From Pasteurella multocida (GTDB lineage: Bacteria; Pseudomonadota; Gammaproteobacteria; Enterobacterales; Pasteurellaceae): a stretch of DNA of 32,000 nt. The stretch covers positions 1,740,001-1,772,000 of the forward strand of contig NZ_LT906458.1 in NCBI RefSeq assembly GCF_900187275.1, in the 5' to 3' direction. A model generated the notes under the pieces. The model searched no databases, was not told where the DNA came from, and saw nothing but the letters and a program-made list of their open reading frames with translations. Each line of letters begins with the position of its first letter. Position 1 is the first letter of the stretch. Positions 8,623 to 28,050 of the stretch are shown here, piece by piece. Made by a program: the position numbers and the translations under genes.

Positions 8623-9636
8623 TTATTCCCCTTTGCGCTCACGTCCAAGTAGGCTTGCCGCCACGTCTTGTGCATTTTTACCACAGAATAAAACTTGATA
8701 AACTTGCTCTGTGATCGGCATTTCTATCCCTTGACGTTGCGCTAATAAATAGGCTTCTTTCGCGTTATAAAAGCCTTCTACCACTTGCCCGATATTGTCC
8801 ATTGCTGTTTGGGCTGAAAAGCCCTGACCGAGCATGATACCAAATCGGCGGTTACGCGATTGATCGTCAGTACAGGTTAACACTAAATCACCTAAGCCAG
8901 ACATGCCCATAAAAGTATTTGGATTCGCGCCTAATGAGGCGCCTAAACGGCTAATTTCCGCAATACCACGAGTAATCAAGGCTGTTCGTGCATTAGCACC
9001 AAAGCCCATACCATCCGACATCCCAGCACTGATCGCAATCACATTTTTAATCGCACCACCTAGCTGCACACCGATCATATCTTGATTAATATAAACTCTG
9101 AAATGTTTACTGCAATGGATACGTGCTTGGAATTCCAAAGCAAATTGTTCATTATTGGAGGCTAGGGCAATTGCGGTCGGTAAACCGGCAGCAAGCTCTT
9201 TCGCAAATGTCGGTCCAGATAATACCGCTAACGGGTGTTGTGTACCGAGCTTTTCCTCAATCACTTCTTGCAATAAACGCCCCGTATTGCGCTCTAACCC
9301 TTTCGTCGCCCAAGCAATGCGATGATCAGGGCGTAAATAAGGCTTAATTTTATCAATCACTTCCCCAAATACATGACTTGGCACCACAATTAACAGATCA
9401 CGTGATTGGCTTAAGGCACTGGCTAAATCAAATTCAATATGCAAGGCATCTGGAAAAGCAATATTCGGCAAAAAAGCGTTATTCTGACGTTCTTCACTTA
9501 AGCGTTGCATGTGAACAGGATCATGTCCCCAAAGATAAGTAGGGAAACCATTTCGAGAAAACGCAATCGCTAATGCGGTACCATAAGAACCTGCACCAAG
9601 TACCGTAATTGGAGAAGTGGCTACAGTCGTATTCAT
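8623..9636 (-). CDS. gpsA: NAD(P)H-dependent glycerol-3-phosphate dehydrogenase GpsA
   Basis: 337 aa with an N-terminal [10 protein letters not shown] dinucleotide fold. The GpsA blocks [26 protein letters not shown] and [20 protein letters not shown] are present. Confidence 0.93.
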
Positions 9637-15642: not shown

Positions 15643-16272
15643 ATGAAACAATCTATTCGCCACCAAAAAATTCTTGATCTCGTTACACAAAAAGGCTACG
15701 TCAGTACAGAAGAGCTGGTTAGCCTCTTAGATGTCAGTCCCCCGACTATTCGTCGTGATTTAAATGAGCTGGCTGAGAAAAATTTAATTCGTCGTCATCA
15801 TGGTGGTGCTGCCTCGCCCTCTACGGCAGAAAACAGTGATTATGAAGATCGGAAAAACTTCTTCTTGAAAGGGAAAAACTGCATTGCTCAGCGAGTTGCC
15901 AGCTTAATTCCAAACGGTGCTTCCTTGTTTATTGATATTGGTACCACACCAGAAGCGGTAGCGAAGGCACTCTTAAATCATCAAAAATTACGCATTGTGA
16001 CCAATAACATTAATGCCGCTTATATCCTAATGCAAAATGAAACCTTTGATATTATTTTGGCGAGTGGTTCATTACGTCAAGACGGGGGGATTATTGGTGA
16101 GGCAACCGTTGCCTTTATTTCACAATTCCGTTTAGATTTTGGTATTTTAGGTATCAGTGGTATTGACTTAGATGGCTCACTGTTAGACTACGACTACCAT
16201 GAAGTACAGGTCAAACGCGCCATTATCGAAAGTTCTCGCCAAACCTTATTAGTGACGGATCACTCCCTGTAG
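15643..16272 (+). CDS. glpR: DeoR-family glycerol-3-phosphate regulon repressor GlpR, C-terminally truncated reading frame (209 aa; possible pseudogene)
   Basis: The N-terminal HTH (YVSTEELVSLLDVSPPTIRRDLNELAEKNLIRRHHGGA) and most of the DeoR sensor domain (LFIDIGTTPEAVAKALL..., IIGEATVAFISQFRLDFGILGISGID, DYHEVQVKRAIIESSRQTLLVTDHS) are present. The frame stops right after DHS, where E. coli GlpR (252 aa) continues for about 43 more residues. Confidence 0.8.
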   Translation: MKQSIRHQKILDLVTQKGYVSTEELVSLLDVSPPTIRRDLNELAEKNLIRRHHGGAASPSTAENSDYEDRKNFFLKGKNCIAQRVASLIPNGASLFIDIGTTPEAVAKALLNHQKLRIVTNNINAAYILMQNETFDIILASGSLRQDGGIIGEATVAFISQFRLDFGILGISGIDLDGSLLDYDYHEVQVKRAIIESSRQTLLVTDHSL

Positions 16273-16350
16273 TAAGCGATATGGAGGTGATCTTAACCAA
16301 TGCCTACTATGGTTATGATGCCAATCAATACTAATTACCTCTTAACCCCG

Positions 16351-16359
16351 AAGTGCGGT
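16351..16359 (+). repeat. Uptake signal sequence core (Hin-type USS)
   Basis: Perfect AAGTGCGGT in the glpR 3' remnant region. Confidence 0.9.
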
Positions 16360-16406
16360 CAATACTGAAAACGTTTTGATAGCACGTTCACTCAAACAAT
16401 AACAAT

Positions 16407-16430
16407 CCGCCCGTAAAACGGGCGGTTTTT
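16407..16430 (+). terminator. Rho-independent terminator, probably the original glpR terminator
   Basis: CCGCCCG-taaaa-CGGGCGG is followed by TTTTT. It starts at about the position where a full-length (~252-codon) glpR would end. Confidence 0.75.
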
Positions 16431-17119
16431 AGGCCACCCTATAAGGGCCTAGTACTTCACATGCCCCTCAAGGGGCATGTGAATTCTGACAACCGTTCAA
16501 TAACTCTGTTGCCTACCCCTTAAAGGGGTCCATATATTCTTTCTTCGATAAATTATCCTGAATCATATCTTCCTTTTCCTGATTTCGGATATATTCCTCT
16601 ACAATTTTTGTATTTAAACCTACTGTACTTACATAATAGCCTTTCGCCCAAAAATTTCGATTCCCATACTTATATTTCAAATTTGCATGTCTTTCAAATA
16701 TCATTAGCGATGACTTACCTTTTAAATACCCCATAAAACTTGAAACGGCCAGTTTCGGAGGTATCCTTAACAGCATATGGATATGCTCTTTCATTGCATA
16801 TGCCTCTATTATCTCTACATTCTTGTAGTGACATAATTGTCTTAGTATCCCTCCTATATCAACTCGCAATTTTCCATAAATTGCTTTTCTCCTATACTTA
16901 GGGATAAAGACTATGTGGTACTTACAGTTCCATCTTGTGTGTGATAGACTTGAATCGTCATTGGATTTACTTGCCATGACTTATCCTCCTATATGTTGAA
17001 TTTTGGTTGTCAGCCTTGTTCATTATAGGAGGATGTTTTGTTCTGCTCACCGCTTAAGCTTTTCTGTTCCATACGCAAAGCGTATGGTTTTTATAGCTAG
17101 ACTTTGTCTAGCTATAATG
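16431..17119 (-). mobile_element. IS200-like insertion sequence (IS200/IS605 family, tnpA only); ends approximate
   Basis: This ~0.69-kb unit contains only a Y1-transposase gene. Subterminal hairpins occur on both sides: TTCACATGCCCC-tcaa-GGGGCATGTGAA at 16456-16483, CCATACGC-aaa-GCGTATGG at 17069-17087 and TATAGCTAGAC-ttt-GTCTAGCTATA at 17092-17116. A 10-bp stem (16984-16993 / 17024-17033) sequesters the tnpA Shine-Dalgarno sequence. There are no terminal inverted repeats, as expected for this family. Confidence 0.75.
16513..16977 (-). CDS. tnpA: IS200/IS605-family Y1 (HUH) transposase TnpA
   Basis: 154 aa. The sequence CKYHIVFIPKYRRK, the HUH motif in EHIHMLLRIPP and the catalytic-Tyr block AKGYYVSTVGLNTKIVEEYIRNQ are present. 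AGGAGGA ribosome-binding site upstream. Confidence 0.92.
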   Translation of the reverse strand: MASKSNDDSSLSHTRWNCKYHIVFIPKYRRKAIYGKLRVDIGGILRQLCHYKNVEIIEAYAMKEHIHMLLRIPPKLAVSSFMGYLKGKSSLMIFERHANLKYKYGNRNFWAKGYYVSTVGLNTKIVEEYIRNQEKEDMIQDNLSKKEYMDPFKG

Positions 17120-17148
17120 AAAAAAAGCGCTGTCTTTACAGCGCTTTT
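17120..17148 (-). terminator. Rho-independent terminator of the ABC importer operon
   Basis: The minus-strand transcript reads AAAAGCGCTGT-aaag-ACAGCGCTTTT followed by a T-run. It begins 15 nt after the stop codon at 17163. Confidence 0.8.
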
Positions 17149-17162
17149 ATTTGTCCAAACCG

Positions 17163-18224
17163 TTACTCCACGGGATACCAATGTAATCGAGTAAATACGA
17201 GTTGGCAACTTTCACCCTCTTTTGGTCCGGGATCTCGACGCCCTTTCTGCACACGGAGTTCCTGATCACCCACAACAATATTGTAATCAATTACTTCGCC
17301 TAAATAAGAACGCCGTTTCACAACGCCTGTTACGCCGCCTTCATTGACAAAATCAATTTCTGACGGGCGCGTGGCTAAAATCGCTTTCCCTTGTTGCACC
17401 AGTGCTATTGGAGGCGAAGGTTGAATATGAAAAGTACCATCCAGTCCTGCAAAAGACACCCCTTGGGGAGATAAATTGACCTGTAATTGATTCGATAACC
17501 CAATAAAATTAAACACAAATTTATTGCTTGGGTTATTGTACACATTCAATGGCGTATCAATTTGTTCAATAAGTCCTTTCCTCATCACCAAAATCCGATC
17601 CGATAACGCCATTGCTTCGGCTTGGTCGTGAGTCACATAAATAATGGAAAAACCAAATTTACGTTGCAGGGCTTTAATTTCAAAGCGCATCTCTTCCCTT
17701 AAATGGGGATCTAAACTGGATAACGGCTCGTCAAGTAGCATCACATCTGGATTTAACGCCAAAGCACGTGCTAATGCCACACGCTGTTTTCCCCCGCCGG
17801 ATAAATCATCTGGGCTTTTTTGTGCAACGTTCAGCAAATTAGTGTGTTTTAACGCGTCATTCGTCCGCTTTTCGATTTCCTGTCTTGACACATTTTTCAA
17901 GGTGAGAGGAAATGCCACATTGTCATATACCGTCATATGCGGCCAGACCGCAAAAGCCTGAAACACCATCCCAAAATTACGTTTCTCTGGCGGTAAATAG
18001 AAATTAGTGATTTTGGAAGAAAGTAAACGATCGCCTACACGAATTTCTCCGCCGTCTAAATCTTCAAATCCTGCGATCATACGTAATGTCGTGGTTTTAC
18101 CGCAACCAGACGGTCCTAACATAGAAAAACATTCCCCTTTTTCAATACTGAGGCTCAGATCAGGAATGGCAATGACATCGCCGAATTTTTTCATCACATG
18201 ATTAAGTTGAATATAGCTCATCAT
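17163..18224 (-). CDS. ABC importer ATP-binding protein, copy 2 (PotA/FbpC/MalK-like with a C-terminal regulatory or TOBE-like domain)
   Basis: 353 aa. Walker A is GPSGCGKTT, the signature is [15 protein letters not shown], Walker B is MLLDEPLSSLD and the H-loop is YVTHDQ. It is the last gene of the operon. Confidence 0.9.
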   Translation of the reverse strand: MMSYIQLNHVMKKFGDVIAIPDLSLSIEKGECFSMLGPSGCGKTTTLRMIAGFEDLDGGEIRVGDRLLSSKITNFYLPPEKRNFGMVFQAFAVWPHMTVYDNVAFPLTLKNVSRQEIEKRTNDALKHTNLLNVAQKSPDDLSGGGKQRVALARALALNPDVMLLDEPLSSLDPHLREEMRFEIKALQRKFGFSIIYVTHDQAEAMALSDRILVMRKGLIEQIDTPLNVYNNPSNKFVFNFIGLSNQLQVNLSPQGVSFAGLDGTFHIQPSPPIALVQQGKAILATRPSEIDFVNEGGVTGVVKRRSYLGEVIDYNIVVGDQELRVQKGRRDPGPKEGESCQLVFTRLHWYPVE

Positions 18225-18242
18225 TTTCTCCTTAATATTCGG

Positions 18243-19937
18243 CTATTTCTGTGTTTTCTTCTCGGCATAACGTTTAATCACGGTTTGCCCAAACACAATA
18301 ATAATTAATGCAATACCCGCTAATGCTGCAGAATAAACCGTTTCGCCATCTTCATTCAGGGTATAAATCGCCACCCCGATCGTACGTGTTGACGGACCAT
18401 ATAACATGACCGAAACCGTTAATTCTCTTAATGCCGGTAAGAAAATGAGGAAGAAAGCAGCAATCATTCCCGGACGCACTAACGGCACGACAATATCTTT
18501 CAGCGATTGCCACATACTTGCACCACAAGCACGTGCTGCTTCAACTAAAGAGTCATGTACTTGTTCTAGCGCTGCGGAGTTGGCTTTTAGTGAGAACGCC
18601 ATGTAACGCGCAATATAGGCAATCAAAATAATCCATACTGTGTTGTATAAATTAATACCAAATTTACCGCTCCACGCTAAAATAACCCCTAACGCAATCA
18701 CCGAGCCGGGTACTGAGAATGGCAACATACCCAAGAATTCAAGAATTCCTTTGCCTTTCACTCGCATCTTCACAATGACATAAGAGATCATTACCCCAGC
18801 AAACATCGTTATCACTGCCGCGGCTAAACCTAATAGCACACTATTGCGGATCGCATCTTTAGTGAGCTGCCAGTCAAACAAGATAAATTTGTAGTTATCA
18901 AAGGTGAGATTTTCCCAAGTAATTGGCAGACCATAGGTTTTTAACCCTCCCACGATAAAAATCGTGACCGTTGGTAACACAATGGTAAACGCGATATAGA
19001 ACACACAAATAAACAATAATGGCATTCTTAATCCTCTGAGTTTCACCTCAACAGGACGGAAACTTTTACCCGCAATAATTTGGAAACGTCCACGATTAAG
19101 AATTTTATTTTGCAACCAAATAATCAACGCAGCCGTCACCACTAATACTGTCGCTAACACCGTTCCGGTCCGAATTGCCTCAAAACTCCCCGCACTTTGA
19201 TGGATACGTTCATAAATTAAGGTCGGAATATTGAAAATCCCATTTTCCACCCCTAATACAGCCACCGTACCAAAGTGAGCCATAGAGTAAAGCATAATCA
19301 ATAACGCACCCGACACGATACTCGGCATCACTAATGGAATCGTGATTTTACGTGTAATGGTAAAAAGACTGGCGCCAGAAATACGCGCTGATTCTTCTAA
19401 CGTCGGGTCCATACGCTCAAGTGCACCACATACTTGAATAAAGACGAAGGGGAACAAATACATGGTTTCTACCGCCATAATGCCCGTATAACTGTAGATA
19501 TTGAAAATCGGTTCCTCTAAACCAAACGTATCCATAAAGAAACGGTTAATATAGCCGGCACGAGGGGAAAGTAACATTTTCCAAGCTAACGCCCCAATAA
19601 AAGACGGCAACATAAAAGGCACGAGAAACATCACTTTCATCAGCCCTTTATAAGGCAAATCGGTACGTGTCACTAACCAGGCAAAAAATGTCCCCACGAT
19701 CGTACTCATGATCGTCACACCAACGGCAATGAATAATGAGTTCAATAAGGCTTCGTAGGTTTCTTTCTGTTTCAAAATATTGACGACATCGGTAACATTA
19801 AATTGCCCATTTACCCAAAAGGAATTAATAAAAATTAATAACACAGGGACAGCAACCACAATCACCAAAATCCCAATTGATAACGCTAAAATCGCATTCG
19901 CCACATTAAATGGACTTTTTTGAATCACTGCGGCCAT
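18243..19937 (-). CDS. ABC importer permease with fused double transmembrane domain (FbpB/AfuB/ThiP-like)
   Basis: 564-aa polytopic protein. It has two EAA-loop motifs: LEESARISGASLFTITRKITIPLVMP and LVEAARACGASMWQSLKDIVVPLVRPG. Confidence 0.9.
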   Translation of the reverse strand: MAAVIQKSPFNVANAILALSIGILVIVVAVPVLLIFINSFWVNGQFNVTDVVNILKQKETYEALLNSLFIAVGVTIMSTIVGTFFAWLVTRTDLPYKGLMKVMFLVPFMLPSFIGALAWKMLLSPRAGYINRFFMDTFGLEEPIFNIYSYTGIMAVETMYLFPFVFIQVCGALERMDPTLEESARISGASLFTITRKITIPLVMPSIVSGALLIMLYSMAHFGTVAVLGVENGIFNIPTLIYERIHQSAGSFEAIRTGTVLATVLVVTAALIIWLQNKILNRGRFQIIAGKSFRPVEVKLRGLRMPLLFICVFYIAFTIVLPTVTIFIVGGLKTYGLPITWENLTFDNYKFILFDWQLTKDAIRNSVLLGLAAAVITMFAGVMISYVIVKMRVKGKGILEFLGMLPFSVPGSVIALGVILAWSGKFGINLYNTVWIILIAYIARYMAFSLKANSAALEQVHDSLVEAARACGASMWQSLKDIVVPLVRPGMIAAFFLIFLPALRELTVSVMLYGPSTRTIGVAIYTLNEDGETVYSAALAGIALIIIVFGQTVIKRYAEKKTQK

Positions 19938-19939
19938 TG

Positions 19940-21028
19940 CTACCCCCTTGTTTGCTGAACATGTTGTTGATTATCAGTAAACCAAAGCAAATCATGGAAA
20001 TTAACGTAACAGTCTTCCCCCTCTTGGAACATCAAATCATGTTGCAATGCTTTATTGGTGGAAATTTCTGTTCGTAAAGACACGCCGTCAATATTAATCA
20101 TGTAATCCATTACGGCGCCAAGAAAACTGGCTCGCGCCACTTTACCTTTTAATCCTTCCCCAGATTTGCTCAAAATAATATCTGAAGGGCGACAACCTAA
20201 TTTGCCGGATTCCGCAGGCAGATTTTGCCATTGTAACGCTTGCTTACCTTGTCCAATAAAATGCTGTCCTTCTTCATAGCGCACATGGATAAAATTAGCT
20301 AACCCCATGAATTTAAACACCATTTCATTAGCAGATTTTTCATAAATCTCCCAAGGGGTACCAATTTGTTGAATATCACCGTTTTTATCCATAATGGCTA
20401 AACGATCGGAAATCGCGAGAGCAATCTCTTGATCGTGAGTCACATATAAAATCGTAATGCCCAGTTTCTTTTGTAACTCTTTGATTTCAAAACGCATTTC
20501 TTCTCGTAAATTCGCATCGAGATTATTTAATGGTTCATCTAATAACATCAAAGAGGGCTTCGCCACTAACGCACGTGCTAGCGCGACACGTTGTTGCTGT
20601 CCACCGGAAAGTTGGGAAGGTAAACGTTTTTCCAATCCCGTCAAATTGACCAAATTAACCACTTCCATCACTTGTTGCTGAATTAAGGCTTTATCTAAAT
20701 CCTTCAGCTTTAATGGATACGCAATGTTGTCGAAAACGGTCATGTGCGGCCAAACCGCATAATCTTGAAATACCACCCCCAGACTTCGTTGATCAGGGGG
20801 GATATCAATGCCTTCTGCTGGATCAGACACCACATGTTCGTCAATTAAAATGCGTCCGCTATCAGGCACGTCAAACCCGGCTAACAAACGAAGTAAGACC
20901 GTTTTACCACAGCCAGATGGTCCAAGTAAGGTAAAACATTCACCATCTTTCACTACAAGAGATAAATCTTTTAGCACTTCATTCGAACCAAACGCTTTAC
21001 TGACCTTTTCGAATGTGATTGTTGCCAT
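19940..21028 (-). CDS. ABC importer ATP-binding protein, copy 1 (PotA/FbpC/MalK-like)
   Basis: 362 aa. Walker A is GPSGCGKTV, the signature is [15 protein letters not shown], Walker B is [11 protein letters not shown] and the H-loop is YVTHDQ. It is clearly a paralogue of 17163-18224 and not an identical copy. Confidence 0.9.
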
Positions 21029-21042
21029 AGTGCACTCCTGTT

Positions 21043-22032
21043 TTATTGACGTCCTTGGAGGATTTGGGTGAATTTCTTCACAATCTCTTCTTTCTCCGTC
21101 AAGATTGCTTGATAATCAATCGGAATAGCACGACTAATCGCATCTTCTACTGTTGGCATACCTTCTAAGGTTGCAACACCTTTTCTCACTGGTAACGTAC
21201 CTTCATGCGCAATAATGTGTTGTGCTTCTTCAGACAATAAGAAATCAATGAATTTTTTAGCCGCAGCTGGGTTTTTGGTGCCTTTGAAAATCGCAGCAGG
21301 GCTTGGAATCACTAACATTTCTTTTGGATAGACCAATTTAAGCTGCGCACCTTTTTTGATTTTGTCGTTGGTAATATAATCCACCGCTAACGACGCTAAT
21401 AAGTCACCCGAGGCAGTATCATCCACGACTTGACCCGATCCTTTCCCCACTTTACCTTTATTAGCTTTGATTTTTTCAAAAAACTCCCAGCCAAAAGTCG
21501 ATTTCAACAAGGCAACACTCATATACGCCGTTCCCGATAAAGCCGGGTTAGCAATACCAAAAGCCCCTTTGTATTTTGCGCCCGTAATATCATCCCAGCT
21601 TGTCGGGGGCTCTTTCACAAAACGCGTGTTATAGGCAATACCTAAGGTACCTAAACGAATCGGTGTAAAGGAACCATCAAAATCTGGAATCGGGTTCACA
21701 ATATGCTCAACTTCAGGTGACACATACGCATCTAGCATGCCATTAGCTTTCATTTTAAAGAAATCCGGTACTTCACTGGTCCAAATGACATCTGCCATAA
21801 TTTGTCCTGATTCTTTTTCTGCAGCAATTTTTGCCATGAGTTTGCCTGCACCAGCAGATTGATAATCCATCGCAATGTCAGGATGCTTTTCGTTAAATTT
21901 TGTTTTTAACGCACCAATTAACGATTCTTTCATCGAGGTATAAACAATGAGTTTTTCATTTGCATGCGCAACACCTGCAATTGTCATACTTAATCCGAGT
22001 GCAATCAGGGCTGAAGAGAATGTTTTTTTCAT
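21043..22032 (-). CDS. Periplasmic substrate-binding protein of the ABC importer (Fbp/Afu/PotD-type, family 1 SBP); ligand unknown
   Basis: 329 aa with signal peptide MKKTFSSALIALGLSMTIAGVAHA-NEK. The start is typical of the SBP class (KLIVYTSM...SAGAGKLMAKI...ADVIWTS). It lacks an obvious Tyr-Tyr ferric ligand pair. Confidence 0.85.
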   Translation of the reverse strand: MKKTFSSALIALGLSMTIAGVAHANEKLIVYTSMKESLIGALKTKFNEKHPDIAMDYQSAGAGKLMAKIAAEKESGQIMADVIWTSEVPDFFKMKANGMLDAYVSPEVEHIVNPIPDFDGSFTPIRLGTLGIAYNTRFVKEPPTSWDDITGAKYKGAFGIANPALSGTAYMSVALLKSTFGWEFFEKIKANKGKVGKGSGQVVDDTASGDLLASLAVDYITNDKIKKGAQLKLVYPKEMLVIPSPAAIFKGTKNPAAAKKFIDFLLSEEAQHIIAHEGTLPVRKGVATLEGMPTVEDAISRAIPIDYQAILTEKEEIVKKFTQILQGRQ

Positions 22033-22176
22033 GATCTGATCCTTCCTATTTTGTGATGTATGAGAATGATTATGAGGGGGAGTTACTACTAAACTGATTT
22101 CATCTATCGTATGAAATTTAACCTACAATACCCCCCAAAAACACAAAATAAAAGTCTCGTCAATGTGCGACAAATC

Positions 22177-22226
22177 AGTCAAATTTAACTCATTTTGACA
22201 TGATATGGCTGTCAAAATTGACACAT
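22177..22226. promoter_or_regulatory. Cluster of four GTCAAA/TTGACA-type half sites forming nested inverted repeats; candidate response-regulator binding sites in the divergent control region
   Basis: The sequence is aGTCAAAtttaactcatTTTGACAtgatatggcTGTCAAaaTTGACAcat. It includes the perfect palindrome TGTCAA-aa-TTGACA (22210-22223) and ATTTTGACA-N9-TGTCAAAAT (22192-22218). Confidence 0.4.
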
Positions 22227-22411
22227 TTTCTCAAGCGATACGTCGCTTCCAATGATTTATGAAAAAAAGCCCTATAAATGACTCAAAATATCCGATAAGT
22301 CTTTAAAATATAAATTCTCTTTTTTTGAGATAGATCACAAAAAAAAGCCCCTATTCCGCCACTATTTTGGGTAAGATGACACAGTAAGATGGGTTAATCG
22401 ATGTGATCACT

Positions 22412-23647
22412 ATGCGCTCCAAAAGACAAAATTACATCATATACTTTGTCGTCACCTTATTGGCTTTTATTCACCCAATAAAAGCAGAGGAGCTCGTGAT
22501 CGGTACAACATTTGCTTTAGAGGGCGTGCAACATCTCATCAAGGAATGGAATAAACAACCCGATAGTTTCCCAATTACTACTTTAAACCGCACGAGTGCC
22601 TCATTAAATCAGCTGCTCTCTACTGAAAAAGCGCGTGAAGTTGATCTCATTCTGAGTTCATCTCCGATGCTGTTTTATAATTTACAGCATAAAAACAAGC
22701 TAGCCCCCTTACCTCCTAACATTGAGCATGACACACGCTTCCTCCCCGATCTCCTGCAACCGACCACGGTTGCTTTTGCACTGTCAGGTTACGGCATGCT
22801 TTTTAATATCCCGTTATTACAACAAACTCACTTACCTTTCCCGCAATCTTGGCAAGATCTTACACATCCGGATTTACAAGGGCTCGTGATTATCAGTAGC
22901 CCTACGCGATCAGACACAAATCACATCATGGTAGAAGCGCTATTACAGCGCTATGGTTGGCAACAAGGGTGGGAATTAATTGAAAAAATTATGTTGAATG
23001 TGGGGACAATTTCATCACGCAGTTTTGGGGTGGTGGATAAAGTGCAAGCGAATTTAGGCGCGGTGGGCATTACTATTGATAACTATGCACATATTTTAAC
23101 AACACAAGATCAATCACATTTAGCTTTTCATTATTTTCCTGATTTTCCAATTTCGCCAACCTTTATTGCTGTCGTAGCAGAAAGTCGCAAAAAGCAACAC
23201 GCATTCCGCTTTATTCGCTTTTTACTCAGTGCCACAGGTCAACAAATCCTAACCGATCCGCAGATGAGCAAATACCCGATTACCCCACTGCCTGCAAGTC
23301 ATCCTCAAGCCGCACTACAACAGCAACTCTTCGCTCAGCCTCCACTGAACTATCATCTGTTAATTAAGCGGCAAGAATTAGTCAAATTATTATTTGAACA
23401 ACAAATTACTCACCGTTTAAGCTTATTGAAAGAACATTGGCATCTATTACACCAAAAAGAACGCGCGTTGAATCGACCGCTTCCTGAGCTACGCCAAATT
23501 CTCACTGCCTTACCAGTATCCGCAGAACAAGCAGAAAATGATGATTACTTAACCCATTTTAATCGCAGCCAAGAATTACTTAATTGGCAACATTTTTTTA
23601 TTGCCCAGCAACTTGCTTTCGTTAACGCATTGGAAAATCAAGAATGA
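22412..23647 (+). CDS. Secreted binding-protein-like sensor component (PgtC-like modulator) with a C-terminal helical extension
   Basis: The start is placed at ATG 22412, giving signal peptide MRSKRQNYIIYFVVTLLAFIHPIKA-EE. The body follows the same SBP pattern as the transporter SBP (ELVIGTTF...W...DLILSSSP...). It is followed by a ~110-aa Gln/Leu-rich tail. Its stop codon overlaps the kinase start codon (ATGA at 23644-23647). Confidence 0.7.
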   Translation: MRSKRQNYIIYFVVTLLAFIHPIKAEELVIGTTFALEGVQHLIKEWNKQPDSFPITTLNRTSASLNQLLSTEKAREVDLILSSSPMLFYNLQHKNKLAPLPPNIEHDTRFLPDLLQPTTVAFALSGYGMLFNIPLLQQTHLPFPQSWQDLTHPDLQGLVIISSPTRSDTNHIMVEALLQRYGWQQGWELIEKIMLNVGTISSRSFGVVDKVQANLGAVGITIDNYAHILTTQDQSHLAFHYFPDFPISPTFIAVVAESRKKQHAFRFIRFLLSATGQQILTDPQMSKYPITPLPASHPQAALQQQLFAQPPLNYHLLIKRQELVKLLFEQQITHRLSLLKEHWHLLHQKERALNRPLPELRQILTALPVSAEQAENDDYLTHFNRSQELLNWQHFFIAQQLAFVNALENQE

Positions 23648-25626
23648 AAAAATGGTTGAAACATTTAGATTTGAGCACTGGCTTACAACTGTCTTTTCTG
23701 ATCAGTGGGCTACTTTGTCTGTTTGTCGGTGGCGTGGGGCTTTATACTTGGCAGCAACAACGCACGGAAATCAATTTCGCACTCGATAAAGATTTTCCTA
23801 AAGTGCAAGCCGCGTTTCAAACAGAAGAACAAATTAATATCCTCCATCATGCCTTTATCCATTTGGTCAATGTCAAAAACACCAATGAGAAAGTCGAACG
23901 CTACAACCATGCAAAGCAACAGCTTTCGACGTTAAAGGAACTGATCATTGAATTAGATGAAAATTTAGATGAGGATTTGATGGCATTATTACAGCAACAA
24001 GCCTCACTTTTAGAACAAATATCACAAAATATCACAGGTACGCTCACGTTAAACGATGAACTGAATAAAACCATTTCTCAAATCAACTGGTTACATAATG
24101 ATTTTCACAATGAATTCACCGCACTTTTGCAAGAAATGAGCTGGCAACAATCTACTCTGGCTAACAATATTGTTCAACAGCCACACAACAAACAAAAAAT
24201 CGAACAATTAAAAAAACTGCAACAAGAATTATTGTTAGTTTACGATTTCACTACTTATGAAGAGCAAATTATCACAGAATTACGCACTCAGATAACAGAG
24301 CCAACTGAAAGCAATGTCATTCGACTACACAATTATTTGAGCTATTTATCGTTATTAATTACTAACCGAATTCAGTTGCTTGGTCTTCATTCCTCCACGT
24401 CAACCATTAAACAAATTTTAGATGAACTGATTAACTTTGGCTTAAACCCACAAGCACTCCCCGCCCTGTTTGCAATCCGTACCGAACTGAACCAACAACG
24501 AGAACAGCTGATTCAACAAAGTGATAAGATATTCGAGGCATTTCGCGAGCAAATCAGTACTCAAATTGGTAACAGTAAACAACAATTACATTTACTGCAT
24601 AATATTGTCGAAAAAAGTACTACATTCAACGGCGCATTAATTTTATTGGTGATGCTATTTGCGGGAATTTTTGTCATCGGTATTAACTTCTTTTATATTC
24701 GTTTACGTCTCTTAAAACGTTTTCAACAACTTAACCACGCCGTAGTTCAATTAACCAATGGCGAGCCCAACGTCAAAATCGCCATTTATGGCAATGATGA
24801 ATTAGGGCGGATTGCTAAATTATTGCGCTTATTTCTGTTCGAAATGAATCACAAAACAGAAGAGTTAAAATCGCGTAATCAAGTTCTCTTAGAGGAAATC
24901 GAACACCGTATTGAAGTACAAACCGCATTAGAAAATGCCCAAAATGAACTAACCCAAGCCGCAAAACTGGCTGCTGTCGGTAAAACCTTGACTTCGATTA
25001 GCCATGAAATTACACAACCACTTAATGCCATGAACGCTTATTTGTTTAGTGCGAAAAAAGCCGTGAGTAAACAAAACAGTGAGGCAGCACTTGAATACTT
25101 AAATAAAATCAATCATTTAGTTGAACGCACGGCGCTGATTGTCAAACGCTTACGGCAATTCTCACGCCAAGGGAGCGGCAAAATACAAGCTGTCAATTTA
25201 ATGGATTGTATTCAAAGCGCGTGGGAATTATTGGAATCACAACATAAACCGCGTCAAAGTCAGCTCATCACGCCCACAGATTTACCACTCGTATTAGGTG
25301 AAGATGTCCTTATCGAACAAGTGTTTGTCAATCTCTTCCTCAATGCTTTAGAAGCCATTGAACACACACCGCCCCAAATTCATATTGACGTTGACAGCGA
25401 TAATGCGGAAGACCTCTGTTTATGGATCACCGACAATGGTCAAGGTTGGCCCTTAACTGACAAGTTATTGCAACCTTTTTCGAGCAGTAAATCGATCAAT
25501 TTAGGTTTAGGACTATCCATTAGTCAATCCATCATGGAGCAATGTCAAGGATCATTGACCATTGCCTCTACTCTCACCCATAATGCATTAGTGATATTAA
25601 AATTTAAGGTGGCTCAACATGTTTAA
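23644..25626 (+). CDS. Sensor histidine kinase with a large periplasmic domain (PgtB/DctB-type, partner of an NtrC-family regulator)
   Basis: 660 aa. TM1 is at about aa 14-36 and TM2 at about aa 329-352, bracketing a ~290-aa helical periplasmic region. A HAMP-like linker follows. The H-box is SISHEITQPLNAMNAYL (His454), and the N/G boxes are NLFLNALEA, DNGQGW and GLGLGLSISQSIM. Confidence 0.88.
   Translation: MKKWLKHLDLSTGLQLSFLISGLLCLFVGGVGLYTWQQQRTEINFALDKDFPKVQAAFQTEEQINILHHAFIHLVNVKNTNEKVERYNHAKQQLSTLKELIIELDENLDEDLMALLQQQASLLEQISQNITGTLTLNDELNKTISQINWLHNDFHNEFTALLQEMSWQQSTLANNIVQQPHNKQKIEQLKKLQQELLLVYDFTTYEEQIITELRTQITEPTESNVIRLHNYLSYLSLLITNRIQLLGLHSSTSTIKQILDELINFGLNPQALPALFAIRTELNQQREQLIQQSDKIFEAFREQISTQIGNSKQQLHLLHNIVEKSTTFNGALILLVMLFAGIFVIGINFFYIRLRLLKRFQQLNHAVVQLTNGEPNVKIAIYGNDELGRIAKLLRLFLFEMNHKTEELKSRNQVLLEEIEHRIEVQTALENAQNELTQAAKLAAVGKTLTSISHEITQPLNAMNAYLFSAKKAVSKQNSEAALEYLNKINHLVERTALIVKRLRQFSRQGSGKIQAVNLMDCIQSAWELLESQHKPRQSQLITPTDLPLVLGEDVLIEQVFVNLFLNALEAIEHTPPQIHIDVDSDNAEDLCLWITDNGQGWPLTDKLLQPFSSSKSINLGLGLSISQSIMEQCQGSLTIASTLTHNALVILKFKVAQHV
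24118..24126 (-). repeat. Uptake signal sequence core (Hin-type USS)
   Basis: Perfect ACCGCACTT inside the histidine kinase gene. It is the only perfect USS between 16360 and 28068. Confidence 0.9.
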
Positions 25627-26872
25627 TCCTGCCTATAACGTACTCTTAATTGATGACGACATGGATATTCTCGATTCTTATCAGGATTTATTACGACAAG
25701 AAGGCTATCAAGTGATCACCTGTGCAGACCCGATAGATATTGTGGCGCAAATTCCAGAAAACTGGATTGGGATCATCCTTTGTGATGTCTTGTTGCCCAA
25801 TATTTCAGGTTTAAAAATCTTAGAAGATATCATTCAACGCGATGCACAGATTCCTGTGATTATGATCACGGGTCACGGTGATGTTCCCATGGCAGTGGAG
25901 GCTGTCAAAAAAGGCGCCACAAATTTTCTTGAAAAACCCATCTCAGCAGAAAATTTACTGATTCAAGTCGCACAAGCATTAGAAAAACGCGCTGCCTTAA
26001 TGGAAAATCGCCAATGGCAATTAGAAAAGCTGAGCGAAAGCTTTATTGGTCAAAGTGAATGGATTATCGCTATGCGCCACCAGCTACAAAAACTCGCCGA
26101 CATTGATGTCCCCCTCTTTTTATGGGGAGAAACGGGCACTGGACGTTATCTTTCTGCCACTTACTTACATAAACTCAGTGCCCGTCAGAACGCTCCGTTT
26201 ATTTATCATGAATGTTTACCGCAAGCACAATGCAACCTAGACAAATGCCTAGACGATGTACAGCAGGGCACACTGGTGTTAAAAAATATCCACCATTTAG
26301 CACAAACGGAACAGCAACATTTAGCCAAAGCCTTAAATATGGAAGGATGCGCCTTTAGGCTGATCTTAATCAGTGATTTTGCACTGCTCACGCTCATTCA
26401 AGAACAACGGATTTGCTCAGAACTGTATTATTTATTTTTACATACGCAATTTGAATTATTGCCACTCAAAAAACGCCCCAGCGATATTCTGCCTATCTTC
26501 TGCCATTATGTGCATAAAAGTTGCGCCAGATTAAATAAAGAGTACGTCGAACCTAATAAAAAATTAATACAACATTTACTCACACAAACTTGGCAAGGCA
26601 ATGTCAAAGAGCTTATCCATGTGGCAGAATTATATGCGATTGGCTTATTGGCAGAACAAACGCCAATGAGCAATCCCCTTGCCCTTAAAACAGAGCATAT
26701 CAAACCGCTTGATGAACAGATCAATGAATATGAAAAACAAATCATTGAAGATGCGTTAATTTTTTATCAAGGGCGAATTAATGATGTGGCGACTTATCTG
26801 AATATTCCACGTAAAAAACTCTATTTGCGTATGAAAAAACACCATATCGATAAAAAGCACTATAAATGTTAG
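25619..26872 (+). CDS. NtrC/PgtA-family response regulator with a degenerate (apparently ATPase-dead, GAFTGA-less) AAA+ central domain
   Basis: 417 aa. The receiver is intact (DD12-13, D56, K105). The central domain has GETGTGR in place of GxxGxGK and TLVLKN in place of hhhhDE, and there is no GAFTGA. A C-terminal Fis-type HTH is present (INDVATYLNIPRKKLYLRMKKH). It overlaps the kinase stop codon by 8 nt. Confidence 0.85.
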   Translation: MFNPAYNVLLIDDDMDILDSYQDLLRQEGYQVITCADPIDIVAQIPENWIGIILCDVLLPNISGLKILEDIIQRDAQIPVIMITGHGDVPMAVEAVKKGATNFLEKPISAENLLIQVAQALEKRAALMENRQWQLEKLSESFIGQSEWIIAMRHQLQKLADIDVPLFLWGETGTGRYLSATYLHKLSARQNAPFIYHECLPQAQCNLDKCLDDVQQGTLVLKNIHHLAQTEQQHLAKALNMEGCAFRLILISDFALLTLIQEQRICSELYYLFLHTQFELLPLKKRPSDILPIFCHYVHKSCARLNKEYVEPNKKLIQHLLTQTWQGNVKELIHVAELYAIGLLAEQTPMSNPLALKTEHIKPLDEQINEYEKQIIEDALIFYQGRINDVATYLNIPRKKLYLRMKKHHIDKKHYKC

Positions 26873-27036
26873 GCAAAAAACTAAGAAAATAGGATGTGAT
26901 GCCTGCGCTCAATGTGGGCTATTCTTTGTTCGCGTCCTGCATAAATATAAATCCTGCTTCTTATCACAATCTATTTTACATCTCGCCAAAATCACTTTAT
27001 CCTTTTTAGCTCCCATAGCTTGTATCAAAAATAACG

Positions 27037-28050
27037 ATGATGAAAAAAAATACACTCTTTCTTGGCTTAGTTTTTATTGGCATCTTAACTTTTCTAGTGA
27101 ATCTTTTGGCGAAAACGCCTTTCGCTCTCAATGCCAACCTCAGTGCACTGACGATTGCGATTCTGTTAGGTATTTTATTCGGCAACACTTTTTACCCCAA
27201 AATTTCTCAATACACCGCGCAAGGCGTGATTTTTGCCAAAGGCACCTTATTACGCTTAGGTATTATTTTGTATGGCTTTCGCCTCACGCTACAAGACATT
27301 AGTAACGTTGGCATAAATGCTATTGCGACGGATACCATTATGCTGATTAGCACTTTCTTGCTCACCTTGTGGCTAGGGATTCGTTATTTAAAAATGGATA
27401 AACAAATTGTGTATTTAACTGCCGGTGGTTGTAGCATTTGCGGTGCTGCCGCGATTATGTCCATGCAACCGGTCACCAAAGCGGAATCCCATCAGGTGTC
27501 GATTGCGGTAGCCGTCATTGTGATTTTTGGCACCCTTTCCATGTTCTTGTACCCGTTAATGTACCCTTATCTCACTACTTGGCTAAGTGAACATCAATTT
27601 GGCATTTATATTGGTTCAAGTGTGCATGAAGTGGCGCAAGTGTACGCGGCGGGTGGCAATATTAGTCCTGCGGTGGCAGATACCGCCGTGATTTCCAAAA
27701 TGATCCGGGTGATGATGCTCGCCCCATTCTTACTATTGGTGTCTTGGTTACTGGCGAAGCAAAGTGACAATCCACAAAATAGCAAAATCACCATTCCCTG
27801 GTTTGCCTTTTTATTTATTTTCATGGCGGTGATCAATTCCTTTTCTCTCATCCCCGCCCATATCGTCGCTTGGATTGTGGAAATTGACGGCTTATTACTG
27901 ATCGCCGCGATGACCGCTCTAGGCTTAACCACACATATCAGCGCCATTAAACAGGCTGGCATCAAACCACTGATTTTGGGCGCACTCGTACTATGCTGGT
28001 TGGTCATCGGTGGATTTTTCGTGAATGTGGGCATTAGCCAACTACTCTAG
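27037..28050 (+). CDS. yeiH: YeiH/UPF0324-family integral membrane protein (putative sulfate-exporter-family transporter)
   Basis: 337-aa polytopic protein. Family-typical blocks are present: [38 protein letters not shown] and [13 protein letters not shown]. Confidence 0.8.

Follow-up and report, generated by a model that had tools for sequence, protein, structure and literature searches.

A Pgt-type sensor trio divergently linked to a four-gene ABC importer operon in Pasteurella multocida, a probable locus for phosphoglycerate or phosphoenolpyruvate uptake

Described relatives and the Pasteurella multocida locus

In Salmonella enterica the major facilitator superfamily (MFS) organophosphate:inorganic phosphate (Pi) antiporter PgtP carries phosphoenolpyruvate (PEP), 2-phosphoglycerate (2PG) and 3-phosphoglycerate (3PG) and is induced via PgtC, PgtB and PgtA (PMC9306846, PMC11077982), and a 2022 review names only PgtP as a phosphoglycerate/PEP transporter (PMC9306846). 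The subject of this study is a 32-kb stretch of Pasteurella multocida DNA (the "window"; coordinates below are window positions) in which genes for a PgtC/PgtB/PgtA-like trio are oriented divergently from a four-gene ATP-binding cassette (ABC) importer operon. From comparison of sequences we read this locus, with a rough probability of 0.58, as an externally induced ABC importer under control of PgtCBA, probably for 3PG, 2PG or PEP. Full-text literature searches turned up no account of an ABC operon linked to a Pgt-type sensor, and P. multocida papers name pgtC only among differentially expressed genes.

Like the P. multocida locus, the Salmonella system has its regulatory genes in the order pgtC-pgtB-pgtA, oriented divergently from its cargo. 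In both, PgtC adopts a binding-protein fold, PgtB combines two transmembrane segments with a large periplasmic domain, and PgtA joins a receiver to a shortened AAA+ domain and a Fis-type helix-turn-helix (HTH); both control regions contain a CRP-like site as well as the same palindromic box. The Salmonella system differs in that its cargo is the antiporter PgtP rather than a four-gene ABC importer, and the P. multocida regulators are only 34–49% identical to their enterobacterial counterparts, below NCBIfam equivalog cutoffs. In TorT-TorS and LuxP-LuxQ a periplasmic partner with a binding-protein fold senses the ligand for a membrane histidine kinase, and PgtC-PgtB pairs the same two kinds of protein, although those of the Tor and Lux systems belong to other families and PgtC has an extra helical domain of ~95 residues. 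In Escherichia coli UhpABC-UhpT, too, an external organophosphate acts through an accessory protein and a histidine kinase on a regulator that induces the transporter (PMC4546632); there, however, the components belong to unrelated families (an MFS-like sensor in the case of UhpC, a NarL/FixJ-type regulator in that of UhpA) and the cargo is an antiporter.

Among described ABC importers the locus resembles AfuABC of Actinobacillus pleuropneumoniae and Citrobacter rodentium (PDB 4R72-75) and VCA0625 of Vibrio cholerae (8X1A) in the cluster D fold of its substrate-binding protein (SBP), its fused double permease, a threonine equivalent to AfuA T150 and a historical "iron" annotation (PMC4546632). 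Identity is only ~25%, though, and the P. multocida SBP lacks H205 and E229 of the sugar-coordinating triad H205/D206/E229 of AfuA (PMC4546632). AfuABC moreover consists of three genes with one ATPase, whereas the P. multocida operon comprises four genes, two of them for ATPases, which are distinct paralogs with 44% identity, and no Pgt-type sensor has been reported over AfuABC. The features of the locus are as follows (no strand is given for sites in the control region).

17123–17148, minus strand: intrinsic terminator of the ABC operon (11-pair stem with 5 GC pairs, T-run; 15 bp past the last ATPase stop codon)
17163–18224, minus strand: ABC ATPase 2, 353 amino acids (Pfam ABC_tran and TOBE_2)
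18243–19937, minus strand: fused double permease, 564 amino acids (two Pfam BPD_transp_1 stretches; ~12 hydrophobic segments)
19940–21028, minus strand: ABC ATPase 1, 362 amino acids (Pfam ABC_tran and TOBE_2; NCBIfam)
21043–22032, minus strand: transport SBP, 329 amino acids (Pfam SBP_bac_6/1/11/8; Sec signal peptide ending AHA, with N next)
22098–22116: inverted repeat TTTCATCTATCGTATGAAA, conserved, between the boxes and the SBP start
22175–22192: putative PgtA box 1, TCAGTCAAATTTAACTCA (2 mismatches to TGAGTCAA-NN-TTGACTCA)
22208–22225: putative PgtA box 2, GCTGTCAAAATTGACACA (perfect inner palindrome TGTCAA-AA-TTGACA; 33 bp from box 1)
22279–22285: half-box TGACTCA, conserved, 127 bp upstream of pgtC
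22324–22339: CRP-like site TTTGAGATAGATCACA, ~80 bp upstream of pgtC
22412–23647, plus strand: PgtC-like periplasmic sensor/modulator, 411 amino acids (SBP_bac_6; similar to named PgtC proteins)
23644–25626, plus strand: PgtB-like sensor histidine kinase, 660 amino acids (HAMP, HisKA, HATPase_c; NF047794)
25619–26872, plus strand: PgtA-like response regulator, 417 amino acids (Response_reg, Sigma54_activ_2, AAA_lid_14, HTH_8; NF047793)
26901–26919, plus strand: terminator-like hairpin 3' of pgtA (weak: 7 pairs, poor T-run)

The seven open reading frames (ORFs), tight junctions, overlaps and ABC terminator described in an earlier note on this DNA were all reproduced from the ORF list, Pfam and a terminator scan. 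The intergenic gaps of the ABC operon are 14, 2 and 18 bp, pgtC and pgtB overlap by 4 nt (23644–23647) and pgtB and pgtA by 8 nt (25619–25626); the SBP is 100% identical to P. multocida proteins. The control region has the 370 bp given in the note when it is measured to the first of two pgtC start options, GTG 22403, but 379 bp when measured to the second, ATG 22412, from which the 411-residue product is an exact database protein.

The kinase matches the PgtB model NF047794 end to end (positions 2–655 of 656, E = 1e-180, 602 bits), as the regulator does the PgtA model NF047793 (positions 3–414 of 414, E = 2e-164, 547 bits), and the PgtC-type component, encoded first in the order pgtC-pgtB-pgtA, is 45–49% identical to enterobacterial named PgtC proteins over 93–99% of its length. 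The earlier note had taken these genes for a PgtC/PgtB/PgtA-like trio and had staked that claim beforehand on a similarity of the 22412–23647 protein to PgtC; both the claim and the similarity are borne out, as is its two-transmembrane kinase with a periplasmic domain of ~290 residues, since PgtB has hydrophobic segments at residues ~10–36 and ~325–357 with ~288 residues, the predicted periplasmic domain, between them. The NCBIfam equivalog cutoffs of 1000 bits for PgtB and 650 for PgtA are missed. These cutoffs track distance from the enterobacterial seeds rather than cargo type or function, because pgtP-linked homologs score below the window proteins (PgtB/PgtA 505/522 bits in Mannheimia massilioguelmaensis and 328/435 bits in Vibrio anguillarum) and the PgtA of an ABC-linked Edaphovirga locus exceeds its cutoff with 662.8 bits. 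Judged by homology, gene order, architecture and the candidate operator described below, the regulatory module belongs to the Pgt family, while its cargo and its standing relative to the equivalog cutoffs differ.

Linkage of the trio to pgtP or to the ABC operon

How often such a trio is linked to an ABC operon, a survey that the earlier note had suggested, was determined by scanning one genome per species, which gave 80 loci encoding PgtC relatives (L001–L080); their neighbors were classed by BLASTP against the window proteins and against a reference PgtP (900 bits to the NCBIfam model, cutoff 750). The divergent position is held by pgtP in 63 of the 80 loci (Enterobacterales and two Orbaceae) and by the four-gene ABC operon, in identical order and orientation, in 15 (13 Pasteurellaceae, Zophobihabitans of the Orbaceae, and one Rhodocyclaceae metagenome-assembled genome (MAG)). 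Two loci are cut short by a contig boundary, and pgtP and the ABC operon occur together in none of the 80. Four more ABC-linked loci were found separately by single-protein look-ups, in Uliginosibacterium (L085), a JGI metagenome contig (L086), Edaphovirga cremea (L090) and Bibersteinia (L089), as were pgtP-linked loci in V. anguillarum and M. massilioguelmaensis; an MFS gene near the ABC operon of L086 was rejected as PgtP at 21% identity. ABC-linked loci besides the window number 19, in Pasteurellaceae, Zophobihabitans, Edaphovirga with close metagenomic relatives, and Rhodocyclales; the pairing is a conserved lineage and not an isolated case. Since the operon occupies the divergent position that pgtP holds in 63 loci, the proposal that an ABC importer is found here instead of a PgtP-type antiporter agrees with the survey.

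The further idea that the transporter module had been swapped is upheld as regards the pgtP position but not as regards a swap in situ. In neighbor-joining trees of PgtC, PgtB and PgtA, computed without bootstrap support, the ABC-linked Pasteurellaceae and Zophobihabitans form one clade and, with Vibrio as outgroup, the lineages linked to pgtP are basal, so that regulators and cargo appear to co-diverge as two alternative cassettes, of which the ABC pairing looks derived. ABC-linked PgtB is only 34–41% identical to pgtP-linked PgtB. An exchange of modules between regulators and transporters is in itself not surprising.

A tblastn search of the window revealed no PgtP. None of the species that have the ABC cassette appears among the 120 best homologs of a Pasteurellaceae PgtP (all at least 51% identical), and it is only indirectly, from these homologs, that the rest of the P. 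multocida genome was judged to lack pgtP. The 120 include congeners that have pgtP, namely Gallibacterium anatis (versus G. salpingitidis) and Necropsobacter massiliensis (versus N. rosorum).

Three further observations concern the surveyed loci. The permease is 93–100% identical across Pasteurellaceae genera (L001–L014) and 81% identical to that of the Rhodocyclaceae MAG (L080), whereas PgtC of the same loci is only 55–87% and 43% identical, respectively; a permease so much more conserved than PgtC suggests that the transporter is under unusually tight constraint or has spread horizontally. ATPase 2 is 84–96% identical in the other Pasteurellaceae loci. In Bibersteinia trehalosi (L089:7367–13880) the ABC operon is accompanied by a PgtA-like regulator only (429 bits to the PgtA model), pgtC and pgtB being gone and gidB lying directly behind pgtA, and the control region still has box-like sites such as TGAGTCATTTTTCACTCA at 8868; this PgtA may be an orphan regulator, or the system may have turned constitutive. 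Finally, a pyruvate kinase gene lies directly downstream of pgtP in two Orbaceae (L052:6739–8148 and L079:6788–8203, the latter unannotated and presumed from its size and position) and in V. anguillarum (L081:5695–7158), an arrangement that fits PEP or phosphoglycerate as the currency of the Pgt system.

The two binding proteins and the substrate

The AlphaFold2 model of PgtC (predicted local distance difference test score (pLDDT) 91.6) has an SBP fold at residues ~27–310 followed by an all-helical C-terminal extension at 314–408 (~95 residues), and its best structural neighbor in a fold search is AfuA with glucose-6-phosphate (G6P) bound. The extension, which is predicted with confidence and does not occur in the transport SBPs, has R320, R335, W343 and W392 conserved with either type of cargo and may be the surface by which PgtC contacts PgtB. 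(The PgtC homologs of G. salpingitidis (P0007) and Actinobacillus succinogenes (P0014) are named "pesticidal protein Cry1Aa" at NCBI, an evident misannotation.) In PgtC, conservation reaches 90% or more within each of the two cargo groups at 85 positions, among them those of the motifs that align with AfuA ligand contacts, and only three positions are group-specific between cargo types, none of them in those motifs; by this comparison the sensor is not re-tuned when the cargo changes.

The model of the transport SBP (pLDDT 90.3) likewise has the cluster D SBP fold, with MctA, HitA, P5PA and AfuA as neighbors at 20–25% identity. By sequence its nearest solved relatives are AfuA (G6P, 82 bits), VCA0625, P5PA (pyridoxal phosphate, PLP) and a binder of 2-aminoethylphosphonate (2-AEP), and the ligands of these relatives (G6P, PLP, 2-AEP) all bear phosphate or phosphonate. 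The equivalent of T150, the phosphate-binding threonine of AfuA, is invariant. E229 aligns to a proline and H205 is not conserved (the multiple alignment has an aspartate one column before the H205 column), by which the SBP is ruled out as a hexose-phosphate binder of the AfuA type. The earlier note's placement of the SBP in an Fbp/Afu class known to carry sugar phosphates therefore holds for the distant relationship to AfuA and the phosphate-binding threonine, but not for the sugar ligands. Its view that the sensing and transporting SBPs are related is confirmed by 24% identity (E = 9e-18). On one phmmer scale PgtC proteins of either cargo type score 43–63 bits to the transport SBP family and 22 bits to AfuA, and among the proteins compared the closest relatives of PgtC outside its own family are the SBPs of the adjoining transporter family. 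That family has more than 2000 members at 65–100% identity, from Pasteurella to Desulfovibrio and Rhizobiales, mostly annotated as iron(III) transporters.

A C3 phospho-acid is favored as the compound handled by the system because PgtC is not re-tuned, because PgtC is nearer to the SBP family than to AfuA, and because pyruvate kinase genes adjoin pgtP (above). That the inducer is 2PG, 3PG or PEP would follow by analogy with Salmonella, and that the transporter carries the compound that the sensor detects is suggested by regulatory logic and not by sequence, since the pocket-region motifs of SBP and PgtC differ. We know of no ABC transporter for 3PG, 2PG or PEP. A broader proposal, to which we give somewhat less than even odds, is that the four-gene cassette family as a whole is an ATP-driven importer of these three compounds and that PgtC perhaps came from the family's SBP; with such an origin, the ABC-Pgt pairing would have brought the sensor and transporter lineages together again.

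Besides the missed equivalog cutoffs, the trees without bootstrap support and the indirect evidence on pgtP, several findings weigh against a PgtCBA-induced importer of C3 phospho-acids. Among curated families, PhnS2/PhnT2/PhnU2 (TIGR03261/03265/03262), a putative 2-AEP system, scores best with all four ABC components. In the fold search metal-citrate and ferric binders are as close to the SBP model as organophosphate binders, and both SBP-fold models (SBP and PgtC) fall in cluster D, within which organophosphate, ferric and metal-citrate binders are not separated, so structure does not fix the substrate class of the SBP. The pocket-region motifs are SAGAGK/LSGTAY/VDY in the SBP and NRTS/SRSDT/IDNY in PgtC. 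Lastly, the ABC cassette (65–70% identical) is also found without PgtCBA in Desulfovibrio, Nitratidesulfovibrio, Microvirga and others, which makes its substrate a property of the family set independently of Pgt; as the SBPs of these unlinked cassettes have pocket-region motifs identical to those of the window SBP, the substrate is, on this alignment, probably common across the SBP family. The neighbors of the unlinked cassettes (ackA-pta, a branched-chain amino-acid ABC system, type III glutamine synthetase (GS-III), GntR and a methyl-accepting chemotaxis protein) give no clue to it.

The curated-family matches, the metal-citrate binder MctA and ferric binders among the structural neighbors, the wide occurrence of the cassette without PgtCBA, the differing motifs and the low identity between PgtB proteins of the two cargo groups all speak for an alternative in which the regulatory coupling is the same and the ligand is not, sensor and importer handling some other anionic metabolite (another organophosphate, a phosphonate or a metal-carboxylate complex). 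We consider this unlikely, though it is the alternative to be taken most seriously. It is opposed by the near absence of group-specific positions in PgtC, by PhnS2/T2/U2 scores that are far under the cutoffs (133 bits against 393 for the SBP; 312 and 337 against 458 for the ATPases, the 312 bits to PhnT2 being the best NCBIfam match of ATPase 2; and 172 against 593 for the permease), and by the finding of no phosphonate catabolic genes adjacent to or near the locus. The cargo is neither AfuABC, nor a demonstrated ferric transporter, nor PhnS2T2U2.

The control region and its regulator

Comparison of the ABC-linked and pgtP-linked control regions showed that their commonest k-mers are identical; TGACTCA and GTCAAAA, each present in 56 of the 63 pgtP-linked regions, make up the two halves of an 18-bp palindrome, TGwGTCA-N4-TGACwCA. 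When up to three mismatches are tolerated, this palindrome is found in the pgtC-upstream region of 68 of the 80 loci, at a density of 1.36 per kb as against 0.005 per kb in the remaining 1.6 Mb of these loci (~260-fold). The palindrome accompanies either type of cargo and is also found in the loci of beta-proteobacteria, Vibrio, Mannheimia and Bibersteinia; ABC cassettes without PgtCBA have no such box upstream. Exact matches to its 14-nt core pattern TCAAAWYTRACNCA occur in the window only at boxes 1 and 2; the sole other window match with three mismatches to the box consensus is TCAGTCAATTGTGACCCA at 233–250. The 33-bp tandem spacing of the boxes recurs in L003, L028 and L078 and, by inspection, in L086 and L090. 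In both locus types the boxes lie nearer to the cargo gene than to pgtC (median distances 148 and 231 bp, respectively, in ABC-linked loci, and 119 and 318 bp in pgtP-linked loci), and the PgtA HTH is nearly invariant across both cargo types. From these features we infer that the palindromic boxes are PgtA binding sites that serve the cargo promoter.

Other sites in the control region are conserved as well. The half-box at 22279–22285 lies in a block, ATAAATGACTCAAAA, that is conserved in Pasteurella, Bisgaard Taxon 45 and Gallibacterium. The CRP-like site is the sole window match to T[GT]TGA-N6-TCACA, and its right half, GATCACAAA, is conserved in 13 of the 16 control regions from ABC-linked loci and in 25 of the 63 from pgtP-linked loci; its position upstream of pgtC fits the reported requirement of pgtP for cyclic AMP-CRP (PMC9306846, PMC7873081) and a reported change in pgtC expression upon mutation of crp in P. 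multocida (PMC4921010). Repeats equivalent to TTTCATCTATCGTATGAAA, of the form TTTCA(Y)-N6-10-(R)TGAAA, stand at the same place in other Pasteurellaceae control regions, often followed by AACCTACAATA; as a CRP site the repeat was rejected, being outside the consensus, and by eye it is also unlike FNR and Fur sites. A riboswitch or other known RNA element was ruled out, as neither the window nor the loci with ABC operons, whether linked to PgtCBA or not, had an Rfam hit that reached the gathering score.

The regulator agrees with the earlier description of it as "NtrC-type" in its domain order but not in the hallmarks of sigma-54-dependent activation. A GAFTGA-like motif is absent from all 79 PgtA proteins compared (that of the window and 78 homologs, Salmonella-type pgtP-linked members included), and the central AAA+ domain is shortened, Pfam Sigma54_activat matching only its positions 2–58 of 168. 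A sigma-54 promoter in the control region was ruled out, as 22033–22411 has no match to the -24/-12 consensus (TGGCAC-N5-TTGCW) with up to three mismatches. The absence of both motif and promoter makes it likely, as far as sequence can tell, that the PgtA family activates independently of sigma-54. The absence of GAFTGA from the family conflicts with accounts in which PgtA is a sigma-54-interacting activator, and a recent paper gives it a sigma-54-interacting domain (PMC11077982). A sigma-70 consensus scan found no match within the control region, and its total over 16900–27100 was below that of shuffled sequence.

The 379-bp region that holds the boxes is common to both operons, so that either promoter could use them, and it might be argued that the boxes serve autoregulation of pgtCBA only, that the two operons are adjacent without being co-regulated, and that the ABC operon is under other control (for example through the 22098–22116 repeat) while the target of PgtCBA lies elsewhere. 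The conserved inverted repeat nearer to the SBP gene would suit such an arrangement, and the unlinked cassette copies are clearly under other regulation. We nevertheless think it quite improbable, since the divergent linkage is kept in 19 other loci from three orders with pgtP nearby in none of those surveyed, Bibersteinia has retained PgtA, boxes and ABC operon despite the loss of pgtC and pgtB, the boxes are nearer to the cargo gene in both locus types, and the species with the ABC version are missing from the 120 best PgtP homologs. That the operon is simply an iron(III) importer unrelated to organophosphate uptake, as database names such as "iron(III) transport system substrate-binding protein" and the ferric binders among the fold neighbors would have it, is hardly credible, given the linkage to a phosphoglycerate-type sensor, the G6P, PLP and 2-AEP ligands of the nearest solved relatives and the failure of the search for a Fur box, which was ruled out because its best control-region match (12 of 19) is at background level (the window has 110 sites that score 12 or more) and the best-match positions differ between orthologous control regions.

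Outside the locus proper, a DeoR/GlpR-like ORF (209 amino acids, in the 15643–16977 region) ends at position 137 of the 160 of the DeoRC profile, and an IS200/IS605 transposase gene (16513–16977, minus strand) lies just downstream of it and adjoins the terminator of the ABC operon; insertion of this element may have cut the repressor gene short.

For the PgtCBA-induced importer itself we propose the following sequence of events. PgtC would recognize an external C3 phospho-acid (3PG, 2PG or PEP), as suggested by homology with Salmonella, and modulate the kinase PgtB, which would phosphorylate PgtA. PgtA would then bind the tandem palindromic boxes at 22175–22225 and, probably together with CRP, activate the divergent ABC operon from a sigma-70-type promoter. 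The operon would take the place and role of the Pi-linked antiporter PgtP and import the sensed compound at the cost of ATP instead of by phosphate exchange.

The locus offers a testable substrate hypothesis for a large and highly conserved ABC importer family that is labelled "iron", in parallel with AfuABC, whose AfuA was once misannotated in the same way and which has been corrected to a transporter of sugar phosphates (PMC4546632). The analysis also identifies a candidate PgtA operator, and a PgtA family without the sigma-54 contact motif bears on how the Salmonella system is interpreted. In Salmonella, 3PG uptake via PgtP supports growth in macrophages (PMC7873081). If the reading given here is true, Pasteurella, Aggregatibacter and their relatives would have an ATP-driven, phosphate-conserving equivalent of PgtP, which would bear on how these host-associated bacteria feed on glycolytic intermediates of their hosts.

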